In this document: positions 1 through 16,328 of the stretch, piece after piece
Layout of the letters: every line of letters starts with the position of its first letter
Position numbering within the stretch: the stretch's first letter is position 1
NCBI GenBank assembly: GCA_001816655.1
Contig: MHCP01000015.1
Coordinates: 96,049 to 160,048, forward strand
Direction of reading: 5' to 3'
Origin: Candidatus Woykebacteria bacterium RBG_13_40_15
GTDB taxonomy: Bacteria > Patescibacteriota > Microgenomatia > Woykebacterales > RBG-16-39-9b
Length of the DNA stretch: 64,000 bases
Translations under genes and position numbers: made by a program
The notes under the pieces: generated by a model
Seen by the model: only the letters and a program-made list of their open reading frames with translations
What the model was told of the DNA's origin: nothing
The model's database searches: none

Positions 1-607
1 GACAGTCCGTAATGAAATGGTTTCTTTGATCGAAAAAGGCTATTTAAAACAGCCACACACTAGTGCTGGTCGAATTCCATCTCCTCAAGGCATTAAGTTT
101 TACATAAACGAGTTGATGAAAGAACAAGCGGTTCCGGTTAAAGATGAAGTTTCTATTAAAGAAAATCTTTGGGATTATCGCTTTCACTTACACCGACTTT
201 TGAAGCAGGCAACTAGGGAACTCTCAGAACAATCAGGAACATTAGCCCTAGCCGTTACGGAAGAGGGGGACGTCTTCCATTCAGGTTCTCACATGATCCT
301 CGATATGCCTGAATTTTTTGATATTGATTTGACTAAAACAGTTCTCATGTTATTGGATCACCAAGATCTTTTGAACCAAATTCTAGAAAAAGCAGTTGGG
401 AATGAGCCAACCCATATTTTAGTCGGCAGTGAGCTTGGAAATGATTATTTAGAATCTTGCGGTTTGATCTTTGCCCCGTTTGGCTCTGGAAAGAAAAACG
501 TTGGCATTATCGGAGTAATTGGGCCAACACGCATGGCTTACCCCAGGGTAATTCCCACTGTGAGGTATTTTGGTGATCTTCTCACCGAACTTGTAGGTGG
601 CTGGTAA
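1..607 (+). CDS. hrcA: Heat-inducible transcription repressor HrcA (5'-partial, continues upstream of the window)
   Basis: ORF 17..607. N-terminal GYL..PHTSAGRIPS..G winged-helix motif and C-terminal domain typical of HrcA. Directly precedes grpE-dnaK. Confidence 0.85.
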   Translation, partial: TVRNEMVSLIEKGYLKQPHTSAGRIPSPQGIKFYINELMKEQAVPVKDEVSIKENLWDYRFHLHRLLKQATRELSEQSGTLALAVTEEGDVFHSGSHMILDMPEFFDIDLTKTVLMLLDHQDLLNQILEKAVGNEPTHILVGSELGNDYLESCGLIFAPFGSGKKNVGIIGVIGPTRMAYPRVIPTVRYFGDLLTELVGGW

Positions 608-609
608 CT

Positions 610-1056
610 ATGGCTAAAAAAGCGGATAAGAGTACAGAAAGAATACGGGAATTGGAAAATCAGTTGAAGCGAGCTCTTGCCGATTACGACAATTTACAAA
701 AAAGAATAGAAGCCGACAAAGATCAGATTATAAAATTTTCTAAAATAATAATTTTAAGCAAGTTCTTGGATGTTTTAGACACGTTTGAAAATATTGAAGA
801 GGAATGCAAAGAAGCAAACCCGGGACTGCGAAGTGGAATAGAGCTAACATTGGATCAATTTAAGAAAGTTTTGGCGAGCGCAGGAGTTGAAGAAATTAAA
901 ACCGACGCTGATTTCGATCCGAGATTTCACGAGGCAGTCGACGTAGTAGCCGGAGAAGCCAATAACAAAATCGTTGAAGTCGTCGAAAAAGGCTATAAAA
1001 TAGAAGACAAAATTATCCGCCCAGCAAAGGTGAGAGTAAGCAAAAAGGATTTATAA
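610..1056 (+). CDS. grpE: Nucleotide exchange factor GrpE
   Basis: 148 aa with a coiled-coil N-terminus and a GrpE-like C-terminus. Sits at the grpE position of the hrcA-grpE-dnaK order. Confidence 0.85.
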   Translation: MAKKADKSTERIRELENQLKRALADYDNLQKRIEADKDQIIKFSKIIILSKFLDVLDTFENIEEECKEANPGLRSGIELTLDQFKKVLASAGVEEIKTDADFDPRFHEAVDVVAGEANNKIVEVVEKGYKIEDKIIRPAKVRVSKKDL

Positions 1057-1299
1057 ATGATACGAGTTTTTTCTTTAGTTTGGACCTTAATAATATCACT
1101 TGCCGTTGTCGGGTTAAGCTTCTTTTATATCAGGGGAGATGCTAGAGGTTTTCCTTTTTCTTTTGCGCGGGAAATTGTAACTGAAGGAAATACAGGATTC
1201 CATCTAAACGGCTATCTTTTGGCTTTTGATATAATTTTTTGGTGGCTGCTATTTAGTATACTTTGGATAGTTTTAAAAAACTACGTATTTGAAAATTGA
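1057..1299 (+). CDS. Small hydrophobic hypothetical protein
   Basis: 80-aa ORF with two predicted TM segments, packed between grpE and dnaK. No recognisable family. Confidence 0.3.
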   Translation: MIRVFSLVWTLIISLAVVGLSFFYIRGDARGFPFSFAREIVTEGNTGFHLNGYLLAFDIIFWWLLFSILWIVLKNYVFEN

Positions 1300-1313
1300 G
1301 GAGGATAAATTAA

Positions 1314-3266
1314 ATGGGTAAAACAATTGGTATAGATCTTGGAACTACAAATTCGGCTGTTGCTGTGGTTGAAGGCGGTCAGCCAAAAGTAATTCACAGC
1401 GCTGAAGGAGAAAACATTATCCCAAGCGTTGTGGACCCGGTAAAGCACATTGCTGGGAGAGTAGCAAAACGCCAGCAAATTGTAAATCCAAAAGACACAA
1501 TTTTTTCGATCAAAAGGCTGATGGGCCGCCGTTTCAAGGACGAGTCAGTCCAGTATGATATTAGATGGCTTCCATACACGATAAAAGAAGGTAAAGACAG
1601 CGTGGCCGTAGTTGAAGTGCAGGGTAAAGAATATATCCCGCAAGAAATTTCGGCAATGGTCTTGCAAAAAATAAAAGCCGATGCCGAAAGTTACCTCGGT
1701 GAAAAAGTAACTGAAGCAGTAATTACCGTTCCAGCATATTTTGATGATTCACAGCGCCAAGCAACAAAACAAGCCGGTGAAATTGCTGGCCTAGAAGTTA
1801 AAAGAATTATTAACGAGCCGACGGCTGCCGCCCTTGCTTACGGACTAGATAAAGAAAAAGCCCACACTATCGCGGTCTATGATCTTGGTGGCGGGACTTT
1901 TGACATTACGATTTTGGAAATCGGTGAGGGAGTTTTTGAAGTTAAATCAACTGCCGGGGACACACATCTTGGCGGAGACGACTTTGACCAGAAAGTTCTA
2001 AGCTACTTAATTGACGAATTCAAAAAAGAACAGGGAATTGATCTATCCGGTGACAAACAGGCTCTGCAGAGACTGCGCGATGCCGCCGAAAAAGCAAAGG
2101 TCGAGCTTTCCTCTACTGCCGAAGCAGAAATAAATATCCCGTTTATTACCGCCGATTCTTCCGGGCCAAAACACCTGGTTACGAAGTTAACACGCGCGAA
2201 ACTGGAAAGCTTAACAGGTGATCTTGTCGAAAAGAGTTTTGATGCGGTAAAACAGGCGCTTAAAGACGCGAAACTCGAACCTTCAAAAATAGACGAAATC
2301 GTTTTAGTCGGTGGGCAAACCAGAATGCCCGCAGTTGCCGAAAAAGTAAAAAGTTTCTTTGGCAAAGAAGCGCACAAAGGAATAAATCCGGACGAAGTGG
2401 TGGCAGTTGGTGCGGCGATCCAGGGAGCAGTGCTCGCGGGAGAAATGAAGGAGATGGTTTTGCTGGATGTGACTCCCCTTTCCTTAGGAGTTGAAACACT
2501 TGGTGGGGTGATGACCACGTTGATAGCAAGAAACACAACTGTTCCGACAGCAAAAACAGACGTCTTTTCTACTGCGGCGGATAATCAAACCAGTGTTGAA
2601 ATTCACGTGTTGCAAGGTGAGCGGCCAATGGCAGCGGATAATAAGTCACTCGGGCGGTTTATCCTTGAAGGAATTCCGCCCGCGCCAAGAGGTATACCAC
2701 AAGTTGAAGTGACATACGATATTGATGCAAATGGGATTTTGAATGTTACGGCAAAAGACAAAGCAACCGGCAAAGAGCAATCAATAAAAATTACTGGTAG
2801 CACTGGTCTTTCCAAAGACGAAATAGACAAAATGCAAAAAGAAGCAGAAAGCAACGCGGCTGAAGATGCAAAGAGAAAAGAGCTGATAGAAGCGCGAAAT
2901 ATCGCCGACTCTCTCGTGTACACAGCTGAAAAATCAATCAAAGATGCAGGAGATAAATTGCCCGCTGATGTGAAAACAGAAGTTGAGGAAAAAGTAAAAG
3001 CTGCGAAAGAAGCAATTGCCGGCGATGATTTGGAAAAAATCAAAAAAGCAACTGACGAGCTAGGAGCTTCCCTACAAAAAATTGGCTCTTCAATGTACCA
3101 GACCCCTCCGGGCTCCGACAAAACCGAGTCTTCTCCTCAAGACGAAATAAAAGCCGAAGGTGCAACCACTGAGGACACGGAAAAAGAAACCGGAAGCACT
3201 GAGGAGAAAAAAGACGGACCAGTCGAAGGCGAAGTCGTGGACGAAGATAAAGATAAGAAAGAATAA
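1314..3266 (+). CDS. dnaK: Chaperone DnaK (Hsp70)
   Basis: 650 aa with [17 protein letters not shown] and the full Hsp70 ATPase and substrate-binding domains. RBS GGAGG upstream. Confidence 0.97.
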
Positions 3267-3270
3267 AGAT

Positions 3271-3969
3271 ATGAAAAGTTGGTGGGAATTGGGCGAAGGC
3301 GCTGGTTTCAGTGGCAACAAACTATCAACCTATCAAATTGATTGCCCTTTTTGTGAGGAAAGAGACAATTTTGAAGAAGCGGCTCATTTCGAAAAGAAGA
3401 AACCAAACTCATCCAAAGTACTAAATTTTGACACCTTAAAGTGTGGTAACTGCGCAGGCTATGTTATGGTTCTTTGGTCGTCTAGTGACTATGACTTTCA
3501 TTCCGGAATCCACGATTTTCGAGTGTTACCCTGGTCACTTACAATAAATAAAGCCCCTACTCATTGGCCTCAAGCAATACAAAGATATTGGGTGCAAGCA
3601 AATAAATCTTTACAAGTCGAAAACTGGGATGCCGCGGCTGAAATGGCTAGAAGTACATTACAAATTGCTTTAAGAGACCACGGGGCTGTTGGTAAGGATT
3701 TATTTGAGGAAATAAATAATCTTGCAGAGAAAGGAGTGTTGCCACCTCTTATGAAAGAATGGTCTCATGAAGTGAGAGAGCTTGGCAACGACTCAGCCCA
3801 TCCCAGACCAGAGCAAAAAGAAACAAGCCTAGGAGATGCCCGAGATATTGTAGAATTTTTGGACTTTCTTCTCGAATATCTTTACGACTTGCCAAAACGA
3901 ATAGAAGATTATAGAGGAAGAAGGAAAGCCGAAAAAGCAACCACTCAGATCAAAAAGAAAACAAACTAG
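3271..3969 (+). CDS. Zn-ribbon (CPFC..CGNC) plus DUF4145-like C-terminal domain protein
   Basis: Real start is ATG 3271, not the ORF-track start 3160 that overlaps dnaK. Two CxxC pairs N-terminally. C-terminal RELGNDSAH motif resembles the DUF4145 signature. Begins 5 nt after the dnaK stop. Confidence 0.6.
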   Translation: MKSWWELGEGAGFSGNKLSTYQIDCPFCEERDNFEEAAHFEKKKPNSSKVLNFDTLKCGNCAGYVMVLWSSSDYDFHSGIHDFRVLPWSLTINKAPTHWPQAIQRYWVQANKSLQVENWDAAAEMARSTLQIALRDHGAVGKDLFEEINNLAEKGVLPPLMKEWSHEVRELGNDSAHPRPEQKETSLGDARDIVEFLDFLLEYLYDLPKRIEDYRGRRKAEKATTQIKKKTN

Positions 3970-3987
3970 TTGTAACAGTATTCCAAA

Positions 3988-4030
3988 CTCCCAAAAACTT
4001 GAAATTTCTATAAGTCAGATATATAATCGC
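3988..4030 (+). promoter_or_regulatory. Promoter repeat copy A (TTGAAA-17-TATAAT)
   Basis: -35 TTGAAA 3999..4004, 17-nt spacer, -10 TATAAT 4022..4027. First of five copies of CCAAAAACTTGAAATTTCTATAAGTCA...TATAAT. Confidence 0.6.
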
Positions 4031-4128
4031 GAAGATTACATCTAGCCCGTTTCTATGCGGGATTTAATCCCGTCAGTGAATAATGTCGGTACCACTGCAT
4101 TAGTACAGTCCGAAAGGAGAGTCGTCTG

Positions 4129-4539
4129 ATGGCTGACAGGAAAAGATCGACTTCTTGGAGAGCCGATCCAGAGTTCCGGAGAATGGTGGAGGAAAAGAAG
4201 CAAGAGCTGGATTACCTCTTCGGTCTTATCGGTCCGTTCGAGGATTGGGAGGACTGGGATGAGTCTATCCCAGACGAGGACGTGGTCCGCTTAGAGCTGC
4301 ACGTAGGAGACGGCATTGAAAGAGGTCATCTGGAGCTAACCATGGGCGAGCTTCGAAGGGTCAAAGAGCTCGCCGAACTGCTCAAAGTGCTGAAAGAGCA
4401 GAAGATCATGATCGAAGAGCCAGACACGATCGCTAGACTCACCAGCGAGCTAGGATCCGAAAGTGCAAAGAGGGCTCTCGAGGTAGTACTCGGAAGCTTG
4501 ATAATCGAAGGCTGTCCTTGCGACGAACTGTCGGACTAA
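4129..4539 (+). CDS. Hypothetical acidic protein (GC-rich cassette gene 1)
   Basis: 136 aa, GC-rich codon usage unlike the flanks. GGAGAG RBS. No recognisable domain. Ends in CPCDELSD. Confidence 0.5.
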   Translation: MADRKRSTSWRADPEFRRMVEEKKQELDYLFGLIGPFEDWEDWDESIPDEDVVRLELHVGDGIERGHLELTMGELRRVKELAELLKVLKEQKIMIEEPDTIARLTSELGSESAKRALEVVLGSLIIEGCPCDELSD

Positions 4540-4562
4540 TCACGGAAGCGAGGAGGCTTAAA

Positions 4563-4913
4563 ATGCTGACAATAAAAATGACCGGCGACAACGGCCATCT
4601 GCTAACCATAAGCAGAGAAGAAGGCAGAATCCTTATGGAAATGCGATCGCCTGGGGATATGATCCGGGGCTATGAGTTCCGAAAGCATCCCATTAGCCTG
4701 GCTCGGGCGCTCCACTACGTCCTGGCAGTCCCCGAATGTGATGACCTCGCCTTCGTCGAGGAGGATTTCAGAGGCAGGGTTTCCGTCAAGGAGGAGGAGT
4801 ACACCTTGACCTTTGACACCTTGGGCGAGTCAAAAGGCGTTACAGTCAAGGCCCGGCGGGATGACTTTTCCGACGTGGTCGGCCTTTTGGAAAATCTCCC
4901 CAGAGGCTCATGA
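4563..4913 (+). CDS. Hypothetical protein (GC-rich cassette gene 2)
   Basis: GGAGG RBS then ATG 4563 (the ORF track starts earlier at 4518, overlapping gene 1). 116 aa with no recognisable domain. Confidence 0.45.
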   Translation: MLTIKMTGDNGHLLTISREEGRILMEMRSPGDMIRGYEFRKHPISLARALHYVLAVPECDDLAFVEEDFRGRVSVKEEEYTLTFDTLGESKGVTVKARRDDFSDVVGLLENLPRGS

Positions 4914-4989
4914 TCGATCGTCGCCACCAGCGCCTGCCGACAGAGCTCGACTTTAACCGGTCGGGCTCTTCCATCTCTAATAATTTTCC

Positions 4990-5065
4990 AAAAAAAACTT
5001 GAAATTTCTAAAGCGGCTTCTTGTGTGTTGACAGTCGATACACTAAAGGGGTACACTAGCGGTGT
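4990..5065 (+). promoter_or_regulatory. Promoter repeat copy B (truncated) fused to a TTGACA-18-TACACT promoter with TACACT/GTGTA operator-like repeats
   Basis: TTGAAATTTCTA 4999..5010, then TTGACA 5028..5033 and TACACT 5052..5057. TACACT occurs at 5039 and 5052, with inverted GTGTA at 5062. The ATG at 5066 leaves almost no leader. Confidence 0.5.
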
Positions 5066-5329
5066 ATGGTAAAAAGGGTAAATATTTCTTTTCCAGAAAA
5101 AACCTTAAATGATCTGAAAGAGCTTGTACCACCTCGAGAAAGAAGCAAACTGGTGAGTGAGGCCGTCGAAGAAAAGTTAAATGATTTTAAAAGGGCTGTA
5201 GCGTTTGAGAAGCTCGAGAAAGCCCGTGAGAAATTCTCTTCCTTTGAGACTATTAAAAGCAAGGAAGACACTGTTGCTTGGGTAAAAAATATGAGAAAAG
5301 GTTGGAATCGCAGAGAAACCTCGAAGTAA
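5066..5329 (+). CDS. vapB: Ribbon-helix-helix (CopG/VapB-like) antitoxin
   Basis: 87 aa with an N-terminal RHH pattern (RVNISFPEKTLNDLKEL..RERSKLVSEAVEEKL). Immediately upstream of a PIN gene. Confidence 0.7.
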   Translation: MVKRVNISFPEKTLNDLKELVPPRERSKLVSEAVEEKLNDFKRAVAFEKLEKAREKFSSFETIKSKEDTVAWVKNMRKGWNRRETSK

Positions 5330-5334
5330 TCAGA

Positions 5335-5709
5335 ATGAAATTATTGGTTGATACAAACGTTTTTATTGCTTACGGTAAAAAAAGAGATGGCGGTTTGGTT
5401 GATAGAATAAAATCTGAGAACCACGATCTTTACACCTCGGTGGTGTCGCTAGCAGAACTTCGGAGCGGAATCCACAAACGAGACCTAAATTTTTATCAAG
5501 CGATTAAAGAAACCTTTAGGCCGCTGCCTGTCGATTTGGAGATTGCGGATTTGGCTGGCGAATTTAGATACGAATTTTTGAGAAAGGGTTTGGATATAGA
5601 TTTGGCCGACCATATCATAGCTGCGACTGCTTTATTAAATAATTTGGCGCTGGTTACTTTCAACAAAAAAGATTTTCCCCACAAAAATCTCGAGCTGTAT
5701 CCAATTTGA
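5335..5709 (+). CDS. vapC: PIN-domain toxin (VapC-like)
   Basis: Start at ATG 5335 (MKLLVDTNVFI). Conserved D in the LVDTN motif. About 125 aa, 5 nt after the RHH stop. Confidence 0.75.
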   Translation: MKLLVDTNVFIAYGKKRDGGLVDRIKSENHDLYTSVVSLAELRSGIHKRDLNFYQAIKETFRPLPVDLEIADLAGEFRYEFLRKGLDIDLADHIIAATALLNNLALVTFNKKDFPHKNLELYPI

Positions 5710-5722
5710 TAAAATTAGCAAA

Positions 5723-5842
5723 ATGGAAATAAAGGAAACACAGGCGAAAAGTATTTTAACCCCTTCCAAATTCACAACTGCTTATGCAGGAAAGAGAACA
5801 CTTCAATCTATTGATAAATTAAAGTGTTTCCCAAAAACTTGA
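5723..5842 (+). pseudogene. Diverged duplicate of the 5' end of the radical-SAM SplB-like gene (remnant)
   Basis: Encodes MEIKETQAKSILTPSK..., versus MEIKEIAAKSVLTPSK at 7693. About 80% nt identity over the first ~48 nt, then divergence. The stop falls inside promoter repeat C. Confidence 0.55.
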
Positions 5843-5870
5843 AATTTCTATAAGTCAAAGATATAATTCC
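5829..5870 (+). promoter_or_regulatory. Promoter repeat copy C (TTGAAA-17-TATAAT)
   Basis: -35 at 5839..5844 and -10 at 5862..5867. Near-identical to copies A and E. Confidence 0.6.
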
Positions 5871-5964
5871 ACCAACAACAGAAAAGACTCAACCAAGCCA
5901 GCCACTTACCTAAGAAGGGATTTCAAGTGTAGTTTCGGAGGAATACGAAAGGAGCACGGCGGAA

Positions 5965-6702
5965 ATGAGTGAGGGACGAGTTGCTTTGGTCACTGGTTCA
6001 TCTCGTGGAATCGGCCAGGCCATCGCAGTCAAGCTGGCTTCTCAAGGAGCAAGAGTGGCCATCAACTGTTTCCGAGACTTAGATGGTGCAGCTGAAACGC
6101 TGCGCTTAATCGAATCATCTGGAGGCCAGGCCGTCATAATCAGAGCGGATCTCGGTAGTGCCGAAGGAGTTGCCGACCTGCTTGGAAGAACTCAGCAGGC
6201 TCTGGGAGATATCGATATCCTCGTCCACAATGCCGGGTATTTCTATGCCACTCTCCTGCCTCGCTTCAAGAGGGAAGAGTGGGATAAACTGATACAGATT
6301 AACCTGACAGCGGCTTTCGAGCTCGCTAGCGGTGTATATCTGCAAATGGCGAGGAGGAGATGGGGCCGCATTGTCTTCATTTCTTCAGTCATTGCCCTGG
6401 CTGGCAACACCGGTCAGAGTGGTTACGGAGCTGCAAAGGCAGGGCTGATTGGGCTTGCCAAGTCAGTTGCTGTTGAATATGGTGCTAGGGAAATCACCTG
6501 TAACGTCGTTGCGCCAGGATACATCAGAACCAGGATGACCGAGGATGTTCACGAAGAGACCATCGGCGAAGCTTTAGAACGGCAAGCAATCAAACGGCCT
6601 GGAACACCAGAAGACGTAGCTGCCTTGGTCGGTTTTCTAGCTAGCGACGAGGCTAGTTGGATTACTAGGCAGGTATTCCAGGTCGACGGGGGCCTCCTAT
6701 GA
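5965..6702 (+). CDS. Short-chain dehydrogenase/reductase, 3-oxoacyl-ACP reductase (FabG)-like
   Basis: TGSSRGIGQAIA glycine-rich motif and a conserved YGAAK catalytic motif. GC-rich, with a GGAGG RBS. Confidence 0.8.
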   Translation: MSEGRVALVTGSSRGIGQAIAVKLASQGARVAINCFRDLDGAAETLRLIESSGGQAVIIRADLGSAEGVADLLGRTQQALGDIDILVHNAGYFYATLLPRFKREEWDKLIQINLTAAFELASGVYLQMARRRWGRIVFISSVIALAGNTGQSGYGAAKAGLIGLAKSVAVEYGAREITCNVVAPGYIRTRMTEDVHEETIGEALERQAIKRPGTPEDVAALVGFLASDEASWITRQVFQVDGGLL

Positions 6703-6737
6703 TGCGGGGTTCCCCAAACAGGCCGTAACTTGAGCGA

Positions 6738-7175
6738 GTGCTTGGCGCACTTTTGGAAGGAGGAACGGATTTGGCTGGAATAAACGTCGCCCAATTAACG
6801 AAGGGCTACAAATTTCCCCCGATTACCTTTGCCGTCTCAGCCGAGCAGGCAGAGGCATACCGGAAGGTGACCGAGGGTGTCGAGGGATCAAGCTATATCC
6901 CTCCGCTCGGGGCGATCGCATTCGCCCTTCAGTCCCTGCTCGAGCAGGTGGAGTTGCCGGAAGGCTCGGTTCATGGCGGAGAGGGTTACGAGTGCCATAG
7001 CCCAATTGCGGTTGGTAGCGAGCTAATTGCGAATGGCTCTGTCGTTGACCGAGCTGACCGCGGAAGCTTCGCCCTCCTCGAAGTGGAGATCCAACTGACA
7101 GTGGCAGGTTCTTTGGAACCGGCCTTGGTAAGTGGAGCAACACTCGTGACGCCGCTGCTCAAAGGAGGCTACTGA
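6738..7175 (+). CDS. Hotdog-fold protein, MaoC N-terminal-like (HadA-like non-catalytic partner)
   Basis: 145 aa, GC-rich, directly followed and overlapped by a MaoC dehydratase gene. This is the HadA-HadB-like pair arrangement (inference). Confidence 0.45.
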   Translation: MLGALLEGGTDLAGINVAQLTKGYKFPPITFAVSAEQAEAYRKVTEGVEGSSYIPPLGAIAFALQSLLEQVELPEGSVHGGEGYECHSPIAVGSELIANGSVVDRADRGSFALLEVEIQLTVAGSLEPALVSGATLVTPLLKGGY

Positions 7176-7576
7176 TGACTGTTCTAACTGCTCCGGCTGA
7201 GCTTCGTGCCACCCGCCAGTTCGATCAGGAAACCATCAACCGCTACGCCGATCTGGTCGGGGATCACAACCCCATTCATGTCGACGAGGAGTTTGCGAGG
7301 AGCACTCCTTTCGGCGGGACAATTGCCCATGGCATGCTCGTCTTGTCGCTAGCCTCTAACATGCTGGAGAAGCAATTCGGCGACCGGTGGCGAGCGTCGG
7401 GCAAGTTGAAGGTTCGGTTCAAGGCGCCGACCAAAAGCGGAGCTACCGTTACTGCTCAAGCCAGTTTGAAGGAGGGGGAGCAGCCGGCCGACAACAAGAT
7501 CGCGACCTACCGAGTCGAATGCCGGAACGAGCAGAGAGAGGTAGTCATAGTGGGCACTGCGCAGGTTACTCTGTAA
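7175..7576 (+). CDS. MaoC-like (R)-specific dehydratase, hotdog fold (HadB/PhaJ-like)
   Basis: DLVGDHNPIHVD..GGTIAHGM matches the MaoC dehydratase active-site motif. ATGA start overlaps the upstream stop. Confidence 0.75.
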   Translation: MTVLTAPAELRATRQFDQETINRYADLVGDHNPIHVDEEFARSTPFGGTIAHGMLVLSLASNMLEKQFGDRWRASGKLKVRFKAPTKSGATVTAQASLKEGEQPADNKIATYRVECRNEQREVVIVGTAQVTL

Positions 7577-7595
7577 CCCAGTGCCCAAGTTCGGT

Positions 7596-7642
7596 CCCCG
7601 GGGCCTTGCTGTTCCAGCAAAGGTCCCGGGATAGCCTCTTTT
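7596..7642 (+). terminator. Possible intrinsic terminator after the FabG/hotdog cassette
   Basis: Imperfect GC-rich hairpin (CCTTGCTG-ttc-CAGCAAAGG, flanked by CCCCGGGG and TCCCGGGA), then CTCTTTTA. Confidence 0.3.
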
Positions 7643-7692
7643 ATCAGACATTAAGTTCCCAATAAATTCCTATCTTCTGCTAAAATGACTCT

Positions 7693-8541
7693 GTGGAAAT
7701 AAAAGAAATAGCAGCGAAAAGTGTTTTAACTCCCTCCAAACTCCCCGGAGTTGATTTTGTGGTTAATCCTTACATTAGTTGCGGTTTTGCGTGCACTTAT
7801 TGCTACGCAACTTTTATGGCAAGATATGTCGGCAAGACAGCGAACGATTGGGGAAAATTTGTTTTTGTAAAAGAAAACGCTCCCGAAGTTTTAAAAGAGG
7901 AACTAGCAAAACTAAAAAATAAAGGAGCTGGAAAAAGTATCCTTTTTAGTTCTGTCACCGATCCCTATCAAGGTGCAGAATCAAAATATAAAATTACCCA
8001 AAAGTGTCTGGAAGTTTTAGCAGATTTTGGTTTCAGTGGACAAGTTGGAATTTTAACAAAATCCAATTTAGTTTTAAGAGATGCGGATACATTTAAAAAA
8101 CTAAAAGATGTTGAGGTGGGACTGACTATTATAACAACTGATGATAAAATTTCTCGCTATTTTGAAAAATATGCACCAGCTGCAAGTTTAAGACTAGAAG
8201 CCTTGAAGAAACTAAATGAAGAGGGTATAAAAACTTACGTGTTTGTCGGACCTCTTTTGCCTCATTTTGTTGCCGAAGAAGAAAAGCTGGAAAAGCTTTT
8301 TAAAGAGATTTCCGAAACAGGAAACAAGGGGCTTTTTGTGGAACACATAAATTTGAGTAAATATATTTTGGAAAGACTGGAGAGGGAAACAAAAGATTTG
8401 GATAAAAGTACAACAGCCAAGTTTTATGAGTCAAAACAAAAACCTTACAGAGACAGACTGGATGAAATCGTTGTAAAGTTAGTTAAAAAATACAATTTGA
8501 AACTTCGATCCGGCTCCACAATCTACCATCGCGGGTCTTAA
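7693..8541 (+). CDS. Radical SAM protein, SplB-like (DNA-repair photolyase family, COG1533-like)
   Basis: CGFACTYC (CxxxCxxC) near the N-terminus. GTG start. AT-rich, host-like composition. 282 aa. Confidence 0.8.
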   Translation: MEIKEIAAKSVLTPSKLPGVDFVVNPYISCGFACTYCYATFMARYVGKTANDWGKFVFVKENAPEVLKEELAKLKNKGAGKSILFSSVTDPYQGAESKYKITQKCLEVLADFGFSGQVGILTKSNLVLRDADTFKKLKDVEVGLTIITTDDKISRYFEKYAPAASLRLEALKKLNEEGIKTYVFVGPLLPHFVAEEEKLEKLFKEISETGNKGLFVEHINLSKYILERLERETKDLDKSTTAKFYESKQKPYRDRLDEIVVKLVKKYNLKLRSGSTIYHRGS

Positions 8542-8547
8542 ATTTTC

Positions 8548-8585
8548 CCCACTAAACTTGAAGATTTATCTATTTGTAGTATAAT
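8548..8585 (+). promoter_or_regulatory. Promoter repeat copy D (diverged, TTGAAG-16-TATAAT)
   Basis: CCCCACTAAACTTGAAGATTTATCTATTTGTAGTATAAT. -35 at 8558..8563 and -10 at 8580..8585. Confidence 0.5.
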
Positions 8586-8641
8586 CTGCGCACAATCGAA
8601 TATATTGGAGAGTGCTTCGAAAAACCTTCGAGAAAGGAGGG

Positions 8642-9388
8642 ATGGTTGCCATGTTGCGCTTTCTTCAGCAGCTAACAAGGCGACTCCGAGGAAGAAGTCT
8701 AACCAAGGCCAAGCTTTGGTTGGCGCTTTTGTCCTTGGTGTTCTTGCCTCTTTTTGTGAGTGCCGAGCCTGCCTGTGAGGCGCAGAAGATCCGCGAGCGG
8801 TATGGAGTGGAGATTGTGCTCGTGGGTCAGAGCTGGAGCGAGACCAGCCTGGGCGCGGTTGACGACGCTTTGAGTCGACTTCCACCGCATGTCGTCAGCC
8901 AATTGGGTAGCCGGTTCAACGGCAGTCTGTACATACTGTGCAACACTGAGTCGCGTACCCTATCCGGTACCAGCGTCTTCTCGCACGGCGCGAACTTCTA
9001 CTCCAATAGTGACGGCCGCAACGAGCTCGTCCTCTACCCCGACCAGAGTACACCCACTGTCCTGCACGAACTAGCCCATGCCTATCAACTCCGCTTAGTT
9101 CCAGCGGGAAAGTACGCTCTGGTCTTTCGAGACGAGAAGATGAAGGACTTCATGCAAGCCACCGGTTGGCGTCTACTTAGCTCCGATGCGCAGGTGGAAA
9201 CTGCTCTTGATCAGACACAGCTAAGCTTCGCCTATGATGGTCCGACGGTCTGGCATTTCATGTCCAACAACGACCCGCTGGAGGACTACGCGAACTCGTT
9301 CGCCCTGTTCTTCTACGACCTGGAGCGTCTTCGCCAACTCTCGCCAGTGCGCTACGACTGGATCCTAGAGCACGTGGCCAGCGAGTGA
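8642..9388 (+). CDS. Secreted putative Zn-metallopeptidase-like protein (HELAH motif)
   Basis: Start is ATG 8642, after an AAAGGAGGG RBS. N-terminal hydrophobic signal-like segment. HEXXH motif (VLHELAHAYQ). GC-rich. Confidence 0.55.
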   Translation: MVAMLRFLQQLTRRLRGRSLTKAKLWLALLSLVFLPLFVSAEPACEAQKIRERYGVEIVLVGQSWSETSLGAVDDALSRLPPHVVSQLGSRFNGSLYILCNTESRTLSGTSVFSHGANFYSNSDGRNELVLYPDQSTPTVLHELAHAYQLRLVPAGKYALVFRDEKMKDFMQATGWRLLSSDAQVETALDQTQLSFAYDGPTVWHFMSNNDPLEDYANSFALFFYDLERLRQLSPVRYDWILEHVASE

Positions 9389-9427
9389 AGTTGATGACGA
9401 CGAAGTGCCGAGAATCAGTGAACAGTC

Positions 9428-9457
9428 AAAGGCCCTTGCAGCCAGCGAGGGCCCTTT
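9428..9457 (+). terminator. Possible terminator hairpin after the HEXXH gene
   Basis: AAAGGCCC-ttgcagccagcga-GGGCCCTTT, followed by a short T-run. Confidence 0.35.
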
Positions 9458-9465
9458 CTAATTCC

Positions 9466-9502
9466 CCAAAACTTGAAATTTCTATAAGTCATACATTATA
9501 AT
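9466..9502 (+). promoter_or_regulatory. Promoter repeat copy E (TTGAAA-18-TATAAT)
   Basis: -35 at 9473..9478 and -10 at 9497..9502. Its downstream leader shares GAAAGGAGGGATGG with copy D's leader. Confidence 0.6.
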
Positions 9503-9569
9503 TCCACCACAATTGAATATCGCGGACGGTGTCCTCCGAGAAATCGAAGGGCTTTCAAAGAAAGGAGGG

Positions 9570-10562
9570 ATGGCCGAGATGGCTACCCGACTGCCTCAAA
9601 AAGGGATGGCACCTGGTGCTACCCGAGGCAAACCTGTTACCCTTGAGCAGGTTCTCGATCTGTTGGAACGATTGAAGGGGAAGAAGTTCGGGTTAAGGGA
9701 GTTTCAGAGACTCATTGAGTCGTTCGATGTCCTCGCTCTTATTGGGAGCGGAGAACTGACGAGGGAGACGTTGCGCCTTATCCTTACCCCTAATGAGGGC
9801 TGGGCCGCTGGCGAACTTCAAAGGATGCTGAGTTCCTACTTCCCTTTCTGGAATGAGGAAATTGAGTCCTCACAAGGCTATCCCGATGGTTACCGATTCA
9901 AGTCTGCAGCCGGGAAGCTGCTAGCCTTGCAGAGTCTTCACCTTCTCGGTACCGATGACTATGGCAGCCACGTAAAAGAGCTAGCCACCCACTACGCTCG
10001 CAACATGCCTAAGGGAGCCGAGGAGCTTTTAGTTTGCCCGAAACCCTCAAGGGCGAAGGAGTGGGGGTTAACTTACTCCTACAACCTACCCTTAAGTAGT
10101 GCGTTGATAATCCTAGACAGGGCCATAAAGCCAAGGTTCCAAAACTGGTGGAAAGATGAGCAGCTTGGCGACACCGAGATGCTAAGACTCACCGACAAAA
10201 CTGCAGCAGCGCTCGACAAGCTGGAGGCGGAAACACCAGGAGACTACCTAGTCATTCCTGTCCAGATGGGGATGAGGCACCGTGGCAGAAGCGCTCGTAG
10301 AGCTGTAGCCTGCTTCGCCGAAAACGAGTTCGGTCTCGGTCCTCTCGAAGTCGCCTACTACCTTGCTAGCTGTCCCGAGCGGTTCGTCATGTGGTACGAT
10401 CTAGGGATTATCTGCGCAGGTGCCGAATGCAAAGATAGTCCTAAGGGGGAGTTCGACGGTTGCCCAGCCTTCAACGAGCACCAGGATAGGATCAATCTTC
10501 GCTACCGCCGAGCTGACGAGTACAGTGATTTGTATGGGGTGGCGACCGGCTTCCTGTCGTAG
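9570..10562 (+). CDS. Hypothetical protein (GC-rich orphan, 330 aa)
   Basis: Start is ATG 9570 after an AAAGGAGGG RBS. No recognisable domain. Cys-rich C-terminus. Confidence 0.5.
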   Translation: MAEMATRLPQKGMAPGATRGKPVTLEQVLDLLERLKGKKFGLREFQRLIESFDVLALIGSGELTRETLRLILTPNEGWAAGELQRMLSSYFPFWNEEIESSQGYPDGYRFKSAAGKLLALQSLHLLGTDDYGSHVKELATHYARNMPKGAEELLVCPKPSRAKEWGLTYSYNLPLSSALIILDRAIKPRFQNWWKDEQLGDTEMLRLTDKTAAALDKLEAETPGDYLVIPVQMGMRHRGRSARRAVACFAENEFGLGPLEVAYYLASCPERFVMWYDLGIICAGAECKDSPKGEFDGCPAFNEHQDRINLRYRRADEYSDLYGVATGFLS

Positions 10563-10594
10563 CTCATCCACCTTCTAACCACAGTTGTTAACAA

Positions 10595-10632
10595 GGCGCC
10601 CGACTCTAACCCAGTCGGGCGCTACCATTTCT
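10595..10632 (+). terminator. Intrinsic terminator at the right end of the island
   Basis: Perfect 9-10 bp stem GGCGCCCGAC / GTCGGGCGC with a 9-nt loop, then TACCATTTCT. Confidence 0.5.
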
Positions 10633-10681
10633 AATACTATTAGCAAATTTTGGTTGAATCTGCTAAAATTCATCACTAGTT

Positions 10682-10834
10682 ATGGCTGAAAAACGTGATT
10701 ACTACCAAATCTTAGGCGTAGGAAAAACAGCCTCCGCCGATGAAATAGCATCCTTTGTATGCGAAAAAGACATTCGTATTTTTCGCGTACTCCCGGATGC
10801 TGCGATTAAGCATAGGCTACGCCTATTAGCTTAA
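10682..10834 (+). pseudogene. Diverged duplicate of the dnaJ 5' end (J-domain start), remnant ORF
   Basis: Encodes MAEKRDYYQILGVGKTASADEI, then unrelated sequence. Compare dnaJ MAKRDYYEVLGVSKTASADDI 190 nt downstream. Confidence 0.5.
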
Positions 10835-10869
10835 TCTTTAAAAAAGCTTATTATTTTGATTAACTATTT

Positions 10870-11964
10870 ATGGCAAAAAGAGATTACTACGAAGTGCTAG
10901 GGGTTTCGAAAACCGCTAGTGCTGACGACATAAAGAAAGCATACAGAGGTATGGCACGGAAGCATCATCCGGATGTGGATAAAACAGCTGGTGCAGAAGG
11001 ACGGTTTAAAGAAATAAACGAAGCCTACCAAGTTTTGTCTGACGCCCAAAAGCGGGAGGCTTATGACCGCTTTGGCCACGCTGCTTTTCAAGCGGGTGGC
11101 GCTCAAGGACAGCCGGGTGGCGGTTTTCAATATCAGTACGGACCTGGAGTTTCTTTTGATTTTGATTTCGGGGGTTTCCGAGACCCATTTGATATTTTTG
11201 AAGAATTTTTTGGATCGAGATCTCCTTTTGGTAGACAAAGTAGGCGAGGCCCGGCACGTGGGCAAGATCTTCATTTTGAAATTACCCTACCTTTTGAAAA
11301 CGCTGCTTTTGGGGTGACACGAAATATAGAAATTCCCCGACGCGAAACTTGTTCGGAATGCAGCGGTAGCGGCGCAGCAAAAGGAAGTAAGCCAGTTACT
11401 TGCCCAGCCTGCAGAGGTTCGGGACGAGTGAGCAACCAGACACAGTCTATTTTCGGCGCTTTTATGACGATGTCTCCTTGCCCAACCTGTAGGGGTGAGG
11501 GGACAGTAATCCTCAAGAAATGCCCAAAATGCAAAGGTAGTGGAATAGTGCGCGGAATCAAAGAAACCCAAATTAAAATCCCGGCTGGTGTCGATGACGG
11601 CGACACTATCCGTTTCCAGAGGCTTGGTGAAGCCGGCGAAAAAGGCGGTGAGTACGGAGACCTTTATTTAACTATCAGAGTTCTCCCTCACAAATTTTTG
11701 AAAAGAGCCGGTTTCGATGTTTATTACGAACAACCAATTTCTTTTACTCAAGCAGCACTTGGTGATGTAATAGAAGTACCGACGCTGGACGGAAAAGTAA
11801 ATTTGAAAATCCCAGAAGGAATTCAGACTGGAACGGAACTGCGGTTAAAAGAAAGAGGAATTGTGCATGGACAGTCCCGCGGCGATCAATACGTTAGAGT
11901 AAAAGTGGTAACCCCTAAACACCTTTCCGCTCGGCAGAAGGAAGCTTTAGAAGAGTTGAAATAG
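10870..11964 (+). CDS. dnaJ: Chaperone DnaJ
   Basis: J-domain with HPD. G/F-rich region. Four CxxCxGxG zinc-finger repeats. C-terminal domains. Confidence 0.95.
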   Translation: MAKRDYYEVLGVSKTASADDIKKAYRGMARKHHPDVDKTAGAEGRFKEINEAYQVLSDAQKREAYDRFGHAAFQAGGAQGQPGGGFQYQYGPGVSFDFDFGGFRDPFDIFEEFFGSRSPFGRQSRRGPARGQDLHFEITLPFENAAFGVTRNIEIPRRETCSECSGSGAAKGSKPVTCPACRGSGRVSNQTQSIFGAFMTMSPCPTCRGEGTVILKKCPKCKGSGIVRGIKETQIKIPAGVDDGDTIRFQRLGEAGEKGGEYGDLYLTIRVLPHKFLKRAGFDVYYEQPISFTQAALGDVIEVPTLDGKVNLKIPEGIQTGTELRLKERGIVHGQSRGDQYVRVKVVTPKHLSARQKEALEELK

Positions 11965-12510
11965 GATTCTTCGAATCCTGCGCTATTTCTAGCTAAGGAT
12001 TTTCCATACTTTTGAAATTTTTGAGCTTCTCAATTCCTCAAGTATTCCCAAATCCTGCGCTAGACATCTTATGCTTAGCTAAAAGTGAACAAATAGAACA
12101 GGGGCGAGCTCTCGTCGTGATTCACCGCGGACATCACAACTAAAGAGACTCGCCCCCTGACCAACTGGTCGTACTCCTCGGCCGAGATGCCTTATAAGCA
12201 CGACTAGTTGATCTCTTGTGCGGCGCCGATCATGGCCACGCGAAGACCTCGCTAGCTATTAGGAGGAGGCTAGCCCCAAACCAGCGCCGCCCTCTATTCC
12301 GATTTCTTCCGGGGTGGGGGTGGTGCCAGCAAAAGGAGGTTCTTAGCTGACCGTTCCCCTTTTTCTACCGGGTGAGGTCTTCCATGCGGTTGTAAGCTGG
12401 AAGGAGGTAAGGCCTAAGAGCTCGTAGCCGCGGGAAGTGCCAGCACCACCCCATACCCCAATCGGGATTGCTCGCTTTTATTCCAAAACAGACCAAAAGG
12501 CCTGGGTCTC
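11965..12510. other. GC-rich ORF-free structured region (candidate ncRNA of unknown identity, or decayed foreign DNA)
   Basis: About 550 bp, much more GC-rich than the flanks. No ORF of 60 aa or more. Nested inverted repeats such as GGGGCGAG..CTCGCCCC, and direct repeats of AATCCTGCGCTA. Confidence 0.3.
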
Positions 12511-12513
12511 TCC

Positions 12514-12589
12514 GGTTTCTCGGGAGGGACTCGAACCCCAACCTAAGTGGCTAACAGCCACTGGCTCTTCCAATTGAGCTACCCGAGAA
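12514..12589 (-). tRNA. tRNA-Asn (anticodon GTT)
   Basis: Minus-strand cloverleaf TCTCGGG-TA-GCTC..GAGC-C-AGTGG-CTGTTAG-CCACT..TTCGAGT..CCCGAGA. The T-stem and acceptor junction is one nt off canonical. Confidence 0.6.
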
Positions 12590-12715
12590 TCCCTTCCGGT
12601 TTTTATTTTATTTACTACTCGGTTTATTGTCAACTTTAGCGGGACTTAAAGTGGAGCAGGGTTGACCAGAAAATACTTTAGTGCTACTATTGGCGTATAA
12701 TTTTAGAGACTTACC

Positions 12716-12748
12716 AAAAGTGGGAATAAAATCCCACTTTTACTTTAG
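12716..12748. terminator. Bidirectional intrinsic terminator upstream of nusA
   Basis: Perfect 10-bp stem AAAAGTGGGA-ataaaa-TCCCACTTTT, flanked by A and T runs. Confidence 0.5.
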
Positions 12749-12807
12749 TAGGAAGGTGACAAGTAACAGGTAACAAGTTGCCAAGAGATTTTTAAAAATA
12801 ACTTGTT

Positions 12808-13905
12808 ATGCGACTGAAAGGAGCTAATTTGGCACCAAGAACAGAGTTTGCTTCTGCCTTAAATCAAGCCGCAGCTGAACGCGGGGTAGAACCCGAAGAC
12901 GTCTTAAACATAATTAAAGACGCGATAAAAGCTGCTTACAGAAAAGATTACGGTGGCAAAGAAGAAGACGAAATCGAAGTAGAACTGGATGCGGAATCTG
13001 GTGGAGCAAAGATCCATATTGATAAAAAAGATGTTACCCCTCCTGGTTTTGGCCGAATTGCCGCACAAACAGCAAAACAAGTGATTTTGCAAAGAATCCG
13101 CGAAGCTGAAAAAAGTGCAATTTTTTCCGAATACGAAAAAAGAATCGGCAGTGTTGTAAATGGCATGGTCCAAAGACTAGAAGGGCCAAATCTTGTTGTC
13201 GACATAGGTAAAACCGAAGCTATACTGCCCGCAACAGAAAAATCCTCAGGTGAAGATTATCGTCTAACCCAAAGATTGAAACTTTATATTCTTGGAATTC
13301 GCGAGGGAGCGAGGGGCCAAGAAATCATCGTCTCACGTGCCCACAGGGGATTGGTTGAAGGCCTCTTCAAATTAGAAGTTCCAGAAATTGGTAGTGGTGT
13401 TGTCGAAATAAAAGGAATTGCCAGGGAGGCTGGGAGCAGGAGCAAAGTTGCAGTAAGTAGCCGCCAGGCGGGAGTAGATCCAGTTGGTAGCTGTGTTGGG
13501 CAAAAAGGAGTAAGGGTGCAGGCTGTTATTGCGGAACTTGGGGCGGAAAAAATAGATGTAATTGCTTACAGCGATGAACCAGCAAAATTTGTTGCTGCTG
13601 CGCTTTCTCCCGCTAAAGTTGAAAAAGTAAGTGTGGACGAAGAAACAAAAACGGCTTATGTCGAGGTACCCGAAGATCAACTTTCCCTAGCAATTGGAAA
13701 AGATGGGCAAAATGTTCGCTTATCTGCAAAGCTTACTGGTTGGCGGATAGACATTAAGGGAGCAGACAAAATTCAAGAGCCCGAGGAAGAAGAAAAGACC
13801 AAAGATAAAAAGCCTAAAACTAAGGAAAAAAAGCAAGTTAAGAAAGCAATTAAAAAAACAAAGAGAGTAACAAAGAAAAAGGCAAAGAAAGAAGAAAGTA
13901 CTTAA
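12808..13905 (+). CDS. nusA: Transcription termination/antitermination factor NusA
   Basis: NusA N-terminal domain, S1 and two KH domains, lysine-rich tail. The true start may be TTG 12829, after the GGAGC RBS. Confidence 0.85.
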   Translation: MRLKGANLAPRTEFASALNQAAAERGVEPEDVLNIIKDAIKAAYRKDYGGKEEDEIEVELDAESGGAKIHIDKKDVTPPGFGRIAAQTAKQVILQRIREAEKSAIFSEYEKRIGSVVNGMVQRLEGPNLVVDIGKTEAILPATEKSSGEDYRLTQRLKLYILGIREGARGQEIIVSRAHRGLVEGLFKLEVPEIGSGVVEIKGIAREAGSRSKVAVSSRQAGVDPVGSCVGQKGVRVQAVIAELGAEKIDVIAYSDEPAKFVAAALSPAKVEKVSVDEETKTAYVEVPEDQLSLAIGKDGQNVRLSAKLTGWRIDIKGADKIQEPEEEEKTKDKKPKTKEKKQVKKAIKKTKRVTKKKAKKEEST

Positions 13906-13944
13906 AGCTTACCCAATGGTAATTTTTAAAGCGTCAATTTATTT

Positions 13945-15423: not shown

Positions 15424-15515
15424 TTAATATCTTCTACTGAAGATTACTCACTGCGGAGATTGCGTTCAAGAATAGCTTAACAGCTATCGACTTGAGCTAG
15501 AGTTAATTTATAAAT

Positions 15516-16328
15516 ATGCAAATAACAGCGGAAAATTTTACATTGCTAGCCAATTTAATACAGACTTCAAAAAAGATTTTGATTTTTGTTGGGGAAAATC
15601 CTAGTATTGATTGCCTAGCCGCTGCTATATTTCTCGAAGAAAATCTCTCGGGTGAAAATAAAAGCCTTGAAGTCGTTGCTTCAGGGAATATACCAGATAG
15701 TTTCAAATCTTTTTCAGAAAAGATTTCAAATAAGGCAAGTGCTAAAAAACTAGTTATATCTTTTAATTGGAAGGAATTAGCTGTGGAAAAAGTTTCTTAC
15801 AATTTGGAAGGTGATAATTTTAACTTTATTGTCACTCCAAGAAACAGAAAAATTAGCGGCGAGGAAGTAAAAATTTCTTACCAGGGACAGGAAGAAGATT
15901 TAATTATCGTTTTAGGTGTTTCCGCTTTGTCGGAGCTTGAGTATTTTTCAGGAAGTAGTAGTGATAAGCCAATGATCAATATCGATAAAAGTAACAAAAA
16001 CGAGCTTTTTGGGACTTTGAATTTCGTAAACTCTCAGGCAGATAGCATATCAGCAATTGTTGCGTCTATTTTTGAGAAAGCAAATTTACCAGTAAAACTA
16101 GCTACTAGTGGAGACTTACTAATTTTGGGAATTCGATCAGCAACAAATAATTTCAACAATGTTTTAGATCCGGCAACTTTTGAGGCGGCCGCTTTTGGCG
16201 CCCGATTAAAAGAGAGAGTAGAAGAAAGGGATAATTTAAAACCAAAGGAGGAGCTAAAGGAAGAAACAAATATACCGGCTGATTGGCTTGCCCCGAAAGT
16301 TTTGCATTCGAAAGAAATTCATAACTAG
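15516..16328 (+). CDS. Hypothetical protein, weak and degenerate DHH-phosphoesterase-like (NrnA-like) fold
   Basis: 270 aa. The N-terminus resembles DHH motif I, but the DHH triad is replaced. Occupies the rbfA/truB slot between infB and rpsO. Confidence 0.3.
   Translation: MQITAENFTLLANLIQTSKKILIFVGENPSIDCLAAAIFLEENLSGENKSLEVVASGNIPDSFKSFSEKISNKASAKKLVISFNWKELAVEKVSYNLEGDNFNFIVTPRNRKISGEEVKISYQGQEEDLIIVLGVSALSELEYFSGSSSDKPMINIDKSNKNELFGTLNFVNSQADSISAIVASIFEKANLPVKLATSGDLLILGIRSATNNFNNVLDPATFEAAAFGARLKERVEERDNLKPKEELKEETNIPADWLAPKVLHSKEIHN

Follow-up and report, generated by a model that had tools for sequence, protein, structure and literature searches.

The question raised by this locus is why the first codons of a gene should stand alone, some 2 kb upstream of a complete copy of the same gene. 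The locus lies in a window of 64,000 nucleotides (nt), the whole stretch of DNA analysed, from Candidatus Woykebacteria bacterium RBG_13_40_15, an uncultivated member of the Microgenomates within the candidate phyla radiation (CPR). Here an intact radical-SAM gene with a GTG start (7693-8541, plus strand) is preceded by a fragment comprising the start codon and 16 further codons of a related gene (5723-5773, plus strand). A GC-rich FabG/MaoC cassette (cassette B, 5965-7576, plus strand) sits between the two, just as the original prediction, made from the letters alone, had described. That prediction took the fragment for a trace of the cassette's arrival, either by recombination through homologous flanks from a related but diverged genome, or by insertion at gene 5' ends with partial duplication. 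Comparison with related genomes points to a different history. The fragment is best described as a gene relic, its homology being confined to part of a functional gene and its frame not being kept in relatives. Relatives which possess neither the cassette nor the intact gene already carry this relic, and arrival of the FabG cassette therefore cannot have created it. The reading that we favour, with a probability of about 0.58, is that of a clade-wide dead relic belonging to the conserved left module of the dnaK-dnaJ spacer, stranded behind vapC by the joining of two spacer versions.

A diverged copy of a radical-SAM gene start

The similarity between fragment and gene is short and sharply bounded. 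A repeat finder pairs 5724-5773 with 7694-7743 as a direct repeat of 50 nt at 82% identity (41/50), and 41 of 51 positions agree when the start codons are included (5723-5773 against 7693-7743). Local alignment of 5706-5800 with 7577-8600 scores 33, whilst shuffled sequences score 11.5 on average (standard deviation 1.6) and at most 19. The short diverged copy of the gene start is thus real, with an identity close to the 80% over about 48 nt first reported, and the alignment gives no sign of a chance or low-complexity match of less than 60% over fewer than 30 nt. Both copies share one frame and begin at the start codon, ATG in the fragment and GTG in the gene, to which ATG had originally been assigned in error. 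The respective translations are MEIKETQAKSILTPSKF and M(GTG)EIKEIAAKSVLTPSKL. The ten nucleotide differences comprise three synonymous changes, the ATG/GTG difference, and six which fall in four codons, three of whose replacements are conservative (T/I, I/V and F/L). The left boundary of the similarity is shared, lying 15 to 17 nt before the start codon, and the right boundary is sharp at +51: similarity ends after 5773, and neither the body of the gene nor its 3' end gives a significant match to 5774-5834. The possibility that 5774-5837 represents the 3' end of a radical-SAM gene brought up by an internal deletion was rejected, as local and global alignments with the window and L003 genes scored no better than shuffles; apparent CAATCTA and TTAAAGT matches in this segment are not supported.

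The arrangement recurs in independent assemblies (compared loci are numbered with the prefix L). An 883-nt contig, L053, covers 5706-6588 at 98.2% identity, and its first 259 nt, fragment included, show no difference from the window wherever segments were compared. Contigs L001 and L002 reproduce 7210-8691, and with it the junctions leading from MaoC to the radical-SAM gene and on to cassette C. Since these contigs reproduce the junctions, the arrangement is not an assembly artefact of the contig studied here.

Together with its own -10 box (TAAAAT, 7681-7686), the intact gene occupies 7676-8541 on the plus strand, and its product carries the domain PF04055. The best NCBIfam matches (PA0069, 'radical SAM mobile pair protein B' and Rv2578c) all fall below their cut-offs, and the score against TIGR04070 (SplB) is 19 bits, far short of its cut-off of 400. 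The gene is accordingly classed by sequence in the spore photoproduct lyase (SPL)/COG1533-like radical-SAM family, and not as a true spore photoproduct lyase (SplB). Its only close relative, P0002 in L003, is 89% identical in amino acids (aa) and 90% identical in nucleotides from -15 to the stop codon. Judged against this one close relative, the identity profile is flat, with 47/51 at the start followed by 40-51 matches in each successive 51 nt and no step at +51. Over the same first 51 nt the fragment matches L003 at 43 positions and other family members at 28-35, which places it far closer to the subclade of the gene and L003. The consensus of 120 family members has Q7 and I11, as does the fragment, whereas both the gene and L003 show the derived residues A7 and V11. 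Because it lacks these shared derived sites, the fragment is evidently an outgroup allele and not a recent local duplicate.

The P0002 gene is found in L003 (7463-14533) and L004 (1706-8506), in each case within a putative integrative element beside yidC. In L004 the element encodes a large serine recombinase, and no gene is called in the L003 interval of equal size. Otherwise both share the order of a 59-aa gene, a helix-turn-helix gene, the radical-SAM gene, a DUF87/TraG-like ATPase and Replic_Relax. Searching genome contigs with the radical-SAM protein returned only relatives of at most 61% identity in unrelated contexts, and the next homologues (66-68% identity; L016 and L017-L020) lie in contexts without dnaK-dnaJ synteny.

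Relic and promoter core in the dnaK-dnaJ spacer of relatives

Orthologous loci were retrieved by a VapC search and then by a DnaJ search. In the window, dnaK (1314-3266) and dnaJ (10870-11964) are separated by 7.6 kb in which AT-rich and GC-rich modules alternate. The equivalent spacer consists of 134 nt only in L046 (DnaJ 89% identical in aa) and of 200 nt in L049 (79%). It holds one GC-rich 126-aa cassette in L044 and L045 (both 91%), a GDSL-lipase pseudogene in L054 (74%), a 111-aa open reading frame (ORF; 50% GC) and VapBC in L022 (dnaJ 70% identical in nt), and other ORFs, VapBC and a second ribbon-helix-helix (RHH)/PIN toxin-antitoxin pair in L023 (DnaJ 75%). As its contents differ in this way, the spacer between dnaK and dnaJ is a hotspot for the gain and loss of genes.

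The comparison with orthologous loci proposed at the outset brought to light a decayed relic in both L046 and L044. The 'empty' L046 spacer reads GGTAAATAAAGAAAATACAATCAAAGAGTGTTATTAATTCTTCCAAACTTCCC, then AAAACTTGAAATTTCTA, and its first part matches the radical-SAM start at 37 of 50 positions with a local score of 24, whereas 1000 dinucleotide shuffles reach at most 16-17; for the L044 spacer the equivalent match has p<0.001. In both genomes the relic directly abuts a promoter core, CCCAAAACTTGAAATTTCTA, which is the -35 half of a promoter repeated in the window. L046 has an empty spacer and L044 a different cassette, and both lack, at this locus, the FabG/MaoC cassette and any intact radical-SAM gene. 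Since the core adjoins the relic in these spacers, it is regarded as native spacer sequence. A derivation of the core from radical-SAM codons 18-25 was considered, but a hand count gives about 12/20 with one gap, so that this extension is unsupported and is not claimed; the shuffle-tested relic alignments used spacer targets ending before the core and reach only about +55.

Within the window the core occurs in four copies, all of them inside the island between dnaK and dnaJ and none elsewhere in the 64 kb. One copy (8541-8585, plus strand) lies immediately 3' of the intact gene's stop codon and drives the next GC-rich cassette, and the core also directly follows the stop codon of the radical-SAM gene in the L003 element. 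A second, more decayed relic with an L046-type promoter repeat is present at 3940-4027 (plus strand), ahead of cassette A; the relic part, at about 3940-3985, ends in TTCCAAACTCCC, the repeat begins at 3986, and a BLAST match to L046 covers 28/30. The 3' end of a DUF4145 gene (3271-3969) overlaps this decayed copy. Exact searches for the promoter repeat found no match in genome, metagenome and viral contig collections, the source genome evidently lying outside those collections.

The fragment itself is an assembly of recognizable parts. An extended -10-like element, TGATAAAAT (5707-5715, plus strand), overlaps the VapC stop codon and ends 7 nt before the fragment ATG, a leaderless-type spacing; the same TGnTAAAAT also stands 6-7 nt ahead of the start codon in the intact gene (7679-7686) and in the L003 gene. 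It is followed by TTAGCAAA (5715-5722, plus strand), the left half of a dnaJ operator/promoter, TTAGCA-N15-TGCTAA, which abuts the ATG. Downstream of the relic lies a filler (5774-5800, plus strand) which, among the fetched loci, matches only the same-organism contig L053. Next comes a spacer segment (5801-5850, plus strand) about 48/51 identical to L049 4645-4694, native dnaK-dnaJ intergenic DNA, and ending in the promoter core CCCAAAAACTTGAAATTTCTA. Compared with L044 and L046, the fragment unit thus carries about 52 nt more between relic and core, mostly this L049-type segment. The core belongs to the sigma-70-type promoter of the FabG/MaoC cassette (5839-5867, plus strand; TTGAAA-17-TATAAT), whose -35 half is native spacer and whose -10 half (TAAGTCA..TATAAT) is common to other cassettes.

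The frame opened by the fragment runs for 39 codons (5723-5842, plus strand) and, as first noted, terminates in the promoter repeat, its TGA (5840-5842) falling within the -35 hexamer. It probably represents no gene, and relatives have not kept it intact: in L021 it reads MEIKEK-stop, and in L046 and L044 it has no start codon and contains in-frame stops. The fragment is most likely non-functional DNA. The radical-SAM starts lie 6-7 nt past a TAAAAT -10 with no Shine-Dalgarno sequence (7681-7695 and 5710-5725 in the window; 9986-10003 in L003), unlike all the GC-rich cassettes, which have strong GGAGG-type ribosome-binding sites. This suggests that native genes may use leaderless mRNAs.

The position of the relic behind VapC, rather than behind dnaK, is where the window departs from its relatives. 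The VapB/VapC genes occupy 5066-5709, with the VapC stop codon TGA at 5707-5709. In L022 and L023, TTAGCAAA stands 12-14 nt after VapC and there begins the dnaJ promoter/operator; in the window it stands 5 nt after VapC and is followed at once by the relic ATG. This difference in placement suggests that the VapBC and operator-half end of one spacer was joined to the relic start of another, making the boundary between 5722 and the ATG a probable novel joint between two spacer versions. L021, from another sample and 90.4% identical over VapBC, has the same VapC-TTAGCAGA-ATGGAAATAAAGGAAA junction; its left context differs, and the contig sequence there runs to ATGGAAATAAAGGAAAAGTGACAAAA. Because the relic ORF at this same junction is broken differently in L021, the relic appears to be decaying and not functional.

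These observations can be combined into a single proposal. The relic would be the start of an SPL-like radical-SAM gene, keeping its -10 box, its leaderless start codon and its first 17 codons, and the module formed by this relic start and the promoter core, (T)CCCAAAACTTGAAATTTCTA, would, in this clade of Woykebacteria, make up the side of the spacer next to dnaK; the relic would for that reason predate the FabG/MaoC cassette. GC-rich cassettes would sit after the core, sharing a promoter end and, in most cases, a terminator end as well, whilst toxin-antitoxin and defence genes would be gained, lost and swapped between related genomes within the spacer. A head-to-tail join of two spacer versions by illegitimate recombination, which we infer, would then explain why the relic follows VapC rather than dnaK, and the intact gene 2 kb downstream would be a separate, undeleted allele of the same module.

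Several points weigh against this proposal. The window relic is better preserved than those of its relatives, being 80-82% identical to the gene, with its ORF start intact and mostly synonymous or conservative changes, compared with 74% in L046 and with the decayed copy in L044; it could therefore be younger than proposed. The L049 spacer is only weakly similar to the relic part (p=0.017), and no genome was found with an intact radical-SAM gene directly after dnaK. The left junction is also ambiguous, as the 17 nt upstream of the ATG resemble the L003 upstream sequence (16/21), a likeness that could stem from true homology or from a common promoter. In a test for mosaicism in dnaK, aimed at a 3' end of donor type, the nearest neighbour stayed the same throughout, and the test added no support for the joining.

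The 5' end of dnaJ and rival accounts of the relic

A second displaced gene start lies at the right end of the island, and it bears directly on how the first may have arisen. The segment 10640-10747 (plus strand) contains a full copy of the native operator/promoter (operator 10640-10666) followed by the displaced native first 66 nt of dnaJ. This 5' fragment (10682-10747) agrees with L044 at 65 of 66 positions and with L049 at 60 of 66. The dnaJ gene now in use differs strongly from that of L044 over nt 1-63 (43/63) and resembles it closely over nt 67-300 (203/234). Because the native 66 nt are displaced and the surrogate 63 nt are diverged, 10748-10932 (185 nt, plus strand), consisting of a long leader and the surrogate start, is a precise insertion into dnaJ at +66. 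The inserted leader is homologous to the dnaJ leader of L054, with which it shares AGCATCCTTTGTAT. The dnaJ gene is thus chimeric, the product of a true replacement of its 5' end. At the left junction of this insertion, AAATA is shared with the -10 end of the donor-type promoter.

The operator TTAGCA-N15-TGCTAA overlaps the -10 box directly upstream of dnaJ in every relative; from its resemblance to the consensus of the controlling inverted repeat of chaperone expression (CIRCE), we take it to be a CIRCE-like HrcA operator. In L023, partial and full copies flank the inserted second toxin-antitoxin pair, which identifies the dnaJ operator as a recurrent insertion point. Full or partial copies were located at 10640-10666, 5715-5722 and about 10823-10850 in the window, at 3215-3245 in L022 and at about 9958-9990 in L046.

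The two mechanisms first suggested therefore fare differently from part to part. The dnaJ remnant at the right end of the island is genuine, and insertion at a gene 5' end with partial duplication holds for dnaJ, whose first 63 nt are foreign; it is not supported for the radical-SAM gene, which shows no 5' chimerism relative to L003, its only close relative. Recombination with a related, diverged genome agrees with the diverged alleles and with the flank pieces of L049 type (5801-5850) and L044 type (the dnaJ remnant). Its other half, in which the fragment is a by-product of the arrival of FabG/MaoC through crossovers in homologous flanks, is not supported, in view of the relics in L046 and L044 and of junctions which look like illegitimate joins or concatenated modules.

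The rival that survives best would extend the dnaJ pattern to the radical-SAM gene. According to this account, the cassette or its ancestor integrated at about +51 of a resident radical-SAM gene, bringing a surrogate promoter and first 51 nt, so that the fragment would be the displaced native start and the gene itself a chimera. Such behaviour is documented for islands with dusA-specific integrases, which target the 5' end of a gene, replace it with a surrogate and leave a remnant 5' end behind (PMC4482086). The FabG/MaoC cassette is indeed flanked by imperfect direct repeats (5706/5723-5773 and 7678/7693-7743) with the same left and sharp right boundary, the intact gene lies downstream and the stranded start upstream, and the architecture is demonstrated in dnaJ only 3 kb away. 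The occurrence of that event in the same island makes an equivalent one in the radical-SAM gene plausible, the more so as chimerism can be judged against only one close relative. Furthermore, the divergence between fragment and L003 (8/51) does not significantly exceed that of the gene body (P=0.16), and loss of cassette and gene by recombination between promoter cores could also yield the L044 and L046 spacers. Against this, the intact gene and L003 run collinear from -15 to the stop codon without a change of identity at +51, and its 5' end shares derived sites with L003. The relic is present in genomes without this cassette or the intact gene. The island contains no integrase, and no identical core longer than 9 nt is found at the repeat ends. 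The account is judged fairly unlikely.

The same evidence bears on how the relic, if clade-wide, first arose. By one route, an ancestral radical-SAM gene and core beside dnaK would have lost the gene body by deletion, the window lineage holding an additional, intact module of L003 type. By the other, an ancient cassette insertion at +51 would have brought the surrogate start, and the downstream gene would later have been lost in L044, L046 and L049 through recombination between promoter-core repeats. The uniform profile of the gene against L003 and the shared derived sites favour deletion, whilst the dnaJ case keeps the insertion route alive.

A functional fragment, serving either as a short leader peptide or upstream ORF or as a decoy promoter feeding the FabG cassette, is improbable. 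The extended -10 at leaderless spacing, the intact ATG and an ORF which runs into the cassette promoter are all compatible with such a role, as is the identity of the fragment in the second sample, L053, and transcription may read through from the extended -10 into the cassette. The ORF is nevertheless not conserved, stopping after six codons in L021 and lacking a start codon in L046 and L044; the 22 codons past the homology have no counterpart anywhere, and the cassette has a near-consensus promoter of its own.

A local tandem duplication of the gene start, for example as a long target-site duplication made when the cassette inserted, with neutral decay of the upstream copy, is more improbable still. 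The copies do form same-orientation direct repeats on either side of an insertion. Yet the intact copy resembles L003, from another organism and another context, more than it resembles the fragment, which shows the family consensus at the derived sites shared by the other two; homologous relics occur in other genomes, and the largely synonymous or conservative differences do not suggest random decay. Finally, chance similarity or metagenome misassembly, to which an AT-rich sequence in a metagenome-assembled genome might be thought prone, can be dismissed given a score about 13 standard deviations above the shuffle mean, a shared frame and start, and junctions reproduced by independent assemblies.

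The GC-rich cassettes and comparable systems

The cassette between relic and gene is one of four. It encodes, on the plus strand, a FabG-like short-chain dehydrogenase/reductase (5965-6702), a hot-dog/MaoC-like protein (6738-7175) and a MaoC/HadB-like protein (7175-7576), all recognized by Pfam and NCBIfam. These ORFs have a GC content of 53-58%, as against 36-39% for the radical-SAM and VapBC genes, and the nearest homologues of FabG outside this organism, for instance in Anaerolineae and Acidobacteria, are about 56% identical. The other cassettes lie at 4129-4913 (A), about 8642-9388 (C) and about 9570-10562 (D). Boundary modules were compared over 3986-10640 of the window and 495-1035 of L044. 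A 5' module composed of promoter core, TAAGTCA..TATAAT and a CCACC leader is common to cassettes A, B and D and to that of L044; all of these but B also have a common 3' module, a hairpin followed by CCATTTCTAATA. The 3' ends read ..CCATTTCTA and the 5' ends ATTCCCCAAAACTTG.., and the enclosed ORFs are mutually unrelated. Both cassette boundaries contain TTTCTA, as would be expected of a recombination core or a target duplication.

Pfam and PHROGs searches of the ORFs between dnaK and dnaJ found no recombinase domain. The proteins A1, A2, C and D have no PHROGs or PADLOC match, and C and D have none in NCBIfam either. The cassette C protein, which also has no Pfam match, has an N-terminal hydrophobic segment and a HELAH (HExxH) motif, which suggests a secreted zinc metallopeptidase. 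Protein cluster look-ups for the island returned singletons or re-assemblies of the same organism only.

The spacer may be an integrase-less array of 'expression slots', in which mutually unrelated GC-rich genes of foreign origin would be inserted downstream of a fixed promoter core beside the relic start, each cassette ending in a shared terminator motif (..GTCGGGCTCTTCCATTTCTAATA). The cassettes would pass from one related genome to another together with short flanking spacer pieces, and the process would occasionally overwrite the 5' end of dnaJ with a surrogate. Such a cassette-capture system, distinct from integrons, is a tentative idea which we consider possible but rather doubtful.

Comparison with described systems reveals partial likenesses only. 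The dnaJ insertion has the architecture of a dusA island, but with no integrase and almost no element body. Arrays of type VI secretion system (T6SS) effector-immunity genes and the orphan modules of Rhs and contact-dependent inhibition (CDI) loci have been proposed to originate by homology-facilitated illegitimate recombination (PMC5361080), which is the closest described process to the proposed spacer joining. In both cases, tandem modules accumulate at one conserved locus, remnants mark old junctions, and DNA from related strains is added beside a conserved anchor, here dnaK and the promoter core. The remnants of the spacer are however 5' and not 3' ends, its modules are unrelated GC-rich genes with promoters of their own rather than toxin-immunity pairs, and the host is an uncultivated CPR bacterium. 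Integron arrays likewise hold unrelated foreign ORFs in tandem at a fixed site, with short conserved boundary sequences. Unlike them, the island has no IntI-like recombinase among its ORFs and is bounded by dnaK and dnaJ; each cassette has its own promoter copy, which integron cassettes usually lack; the 3' ends, with a hairpin plus TTTCTAATA, resemble intrinsic terminators rather than attC sites; and flanking host DNA, such as the dnaJ start and spacer pieces, travels with the cassettes. Phage 'morons' are autonomous promoter-ORF-terminator units of deviant base composition located between resident genes. The cassettes resemble these in their autonomy and composition, but are chromosomal, lie between chaperone genes and have no phage genes around them.

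The small genomes of CPR bacteria (Patescibacteria) are usually called streamlined. Here, among close relatives, a single spacer in a heat-shock operon ranges from 134 nt to 7.6 kb and collects foreign high-GC genes, toxin-antitoxin pairs and a defence-like gene. As a scar the fragment is of an ordinary kind; the hotspot around it is unusually active and well structured. Together with the displaced dnaJ start, the fragment offers a means of reconstructing the order and type of recombination in organisms which cannot be cultured. Should the shared cassette ends reflect a dedicated capture mechanism, the phylum would have a new route of gene acquisition; otherwise the spacer is still a clean natural example of illegitimate or short-homology recombination between diverged relatives.

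The remaining features of the region can be stated briefly. The left end of the window carries hrcA (17-607) and grpE (610-1056) ahead of dnaK, and the DUF4145 gene follows directly after dnaK; its product matches the PADLOC anti-phage candidate PD-T7-4 (E 1e-11) and phrog_1305. Downstream of dnaJ are tRNA-Asn, the only Rfam match in 1-16000, and then nusA and infB. Between dnaJ and tRNA-Asn, a GC-rich stretch at 12000-12500 (about 50-57% GC), which has no Rfam match, is conserved in its first part (to about 12223) in L044, L045 and L046, and a 90-aa minus-strand ORF is called in its L045 counterpart; it may represent a small gene or an RNA not yet annotated. Upstream of nusA, a 65-nt segment (12677-12741) is 98.5% identical to L044 and L045, where the surrounding genes are 81-84% identical, and a 26-nt stretch (12753-12778) matches, in inverted orientation, a site in L021 between acylphosphatase and PAP2 genes.

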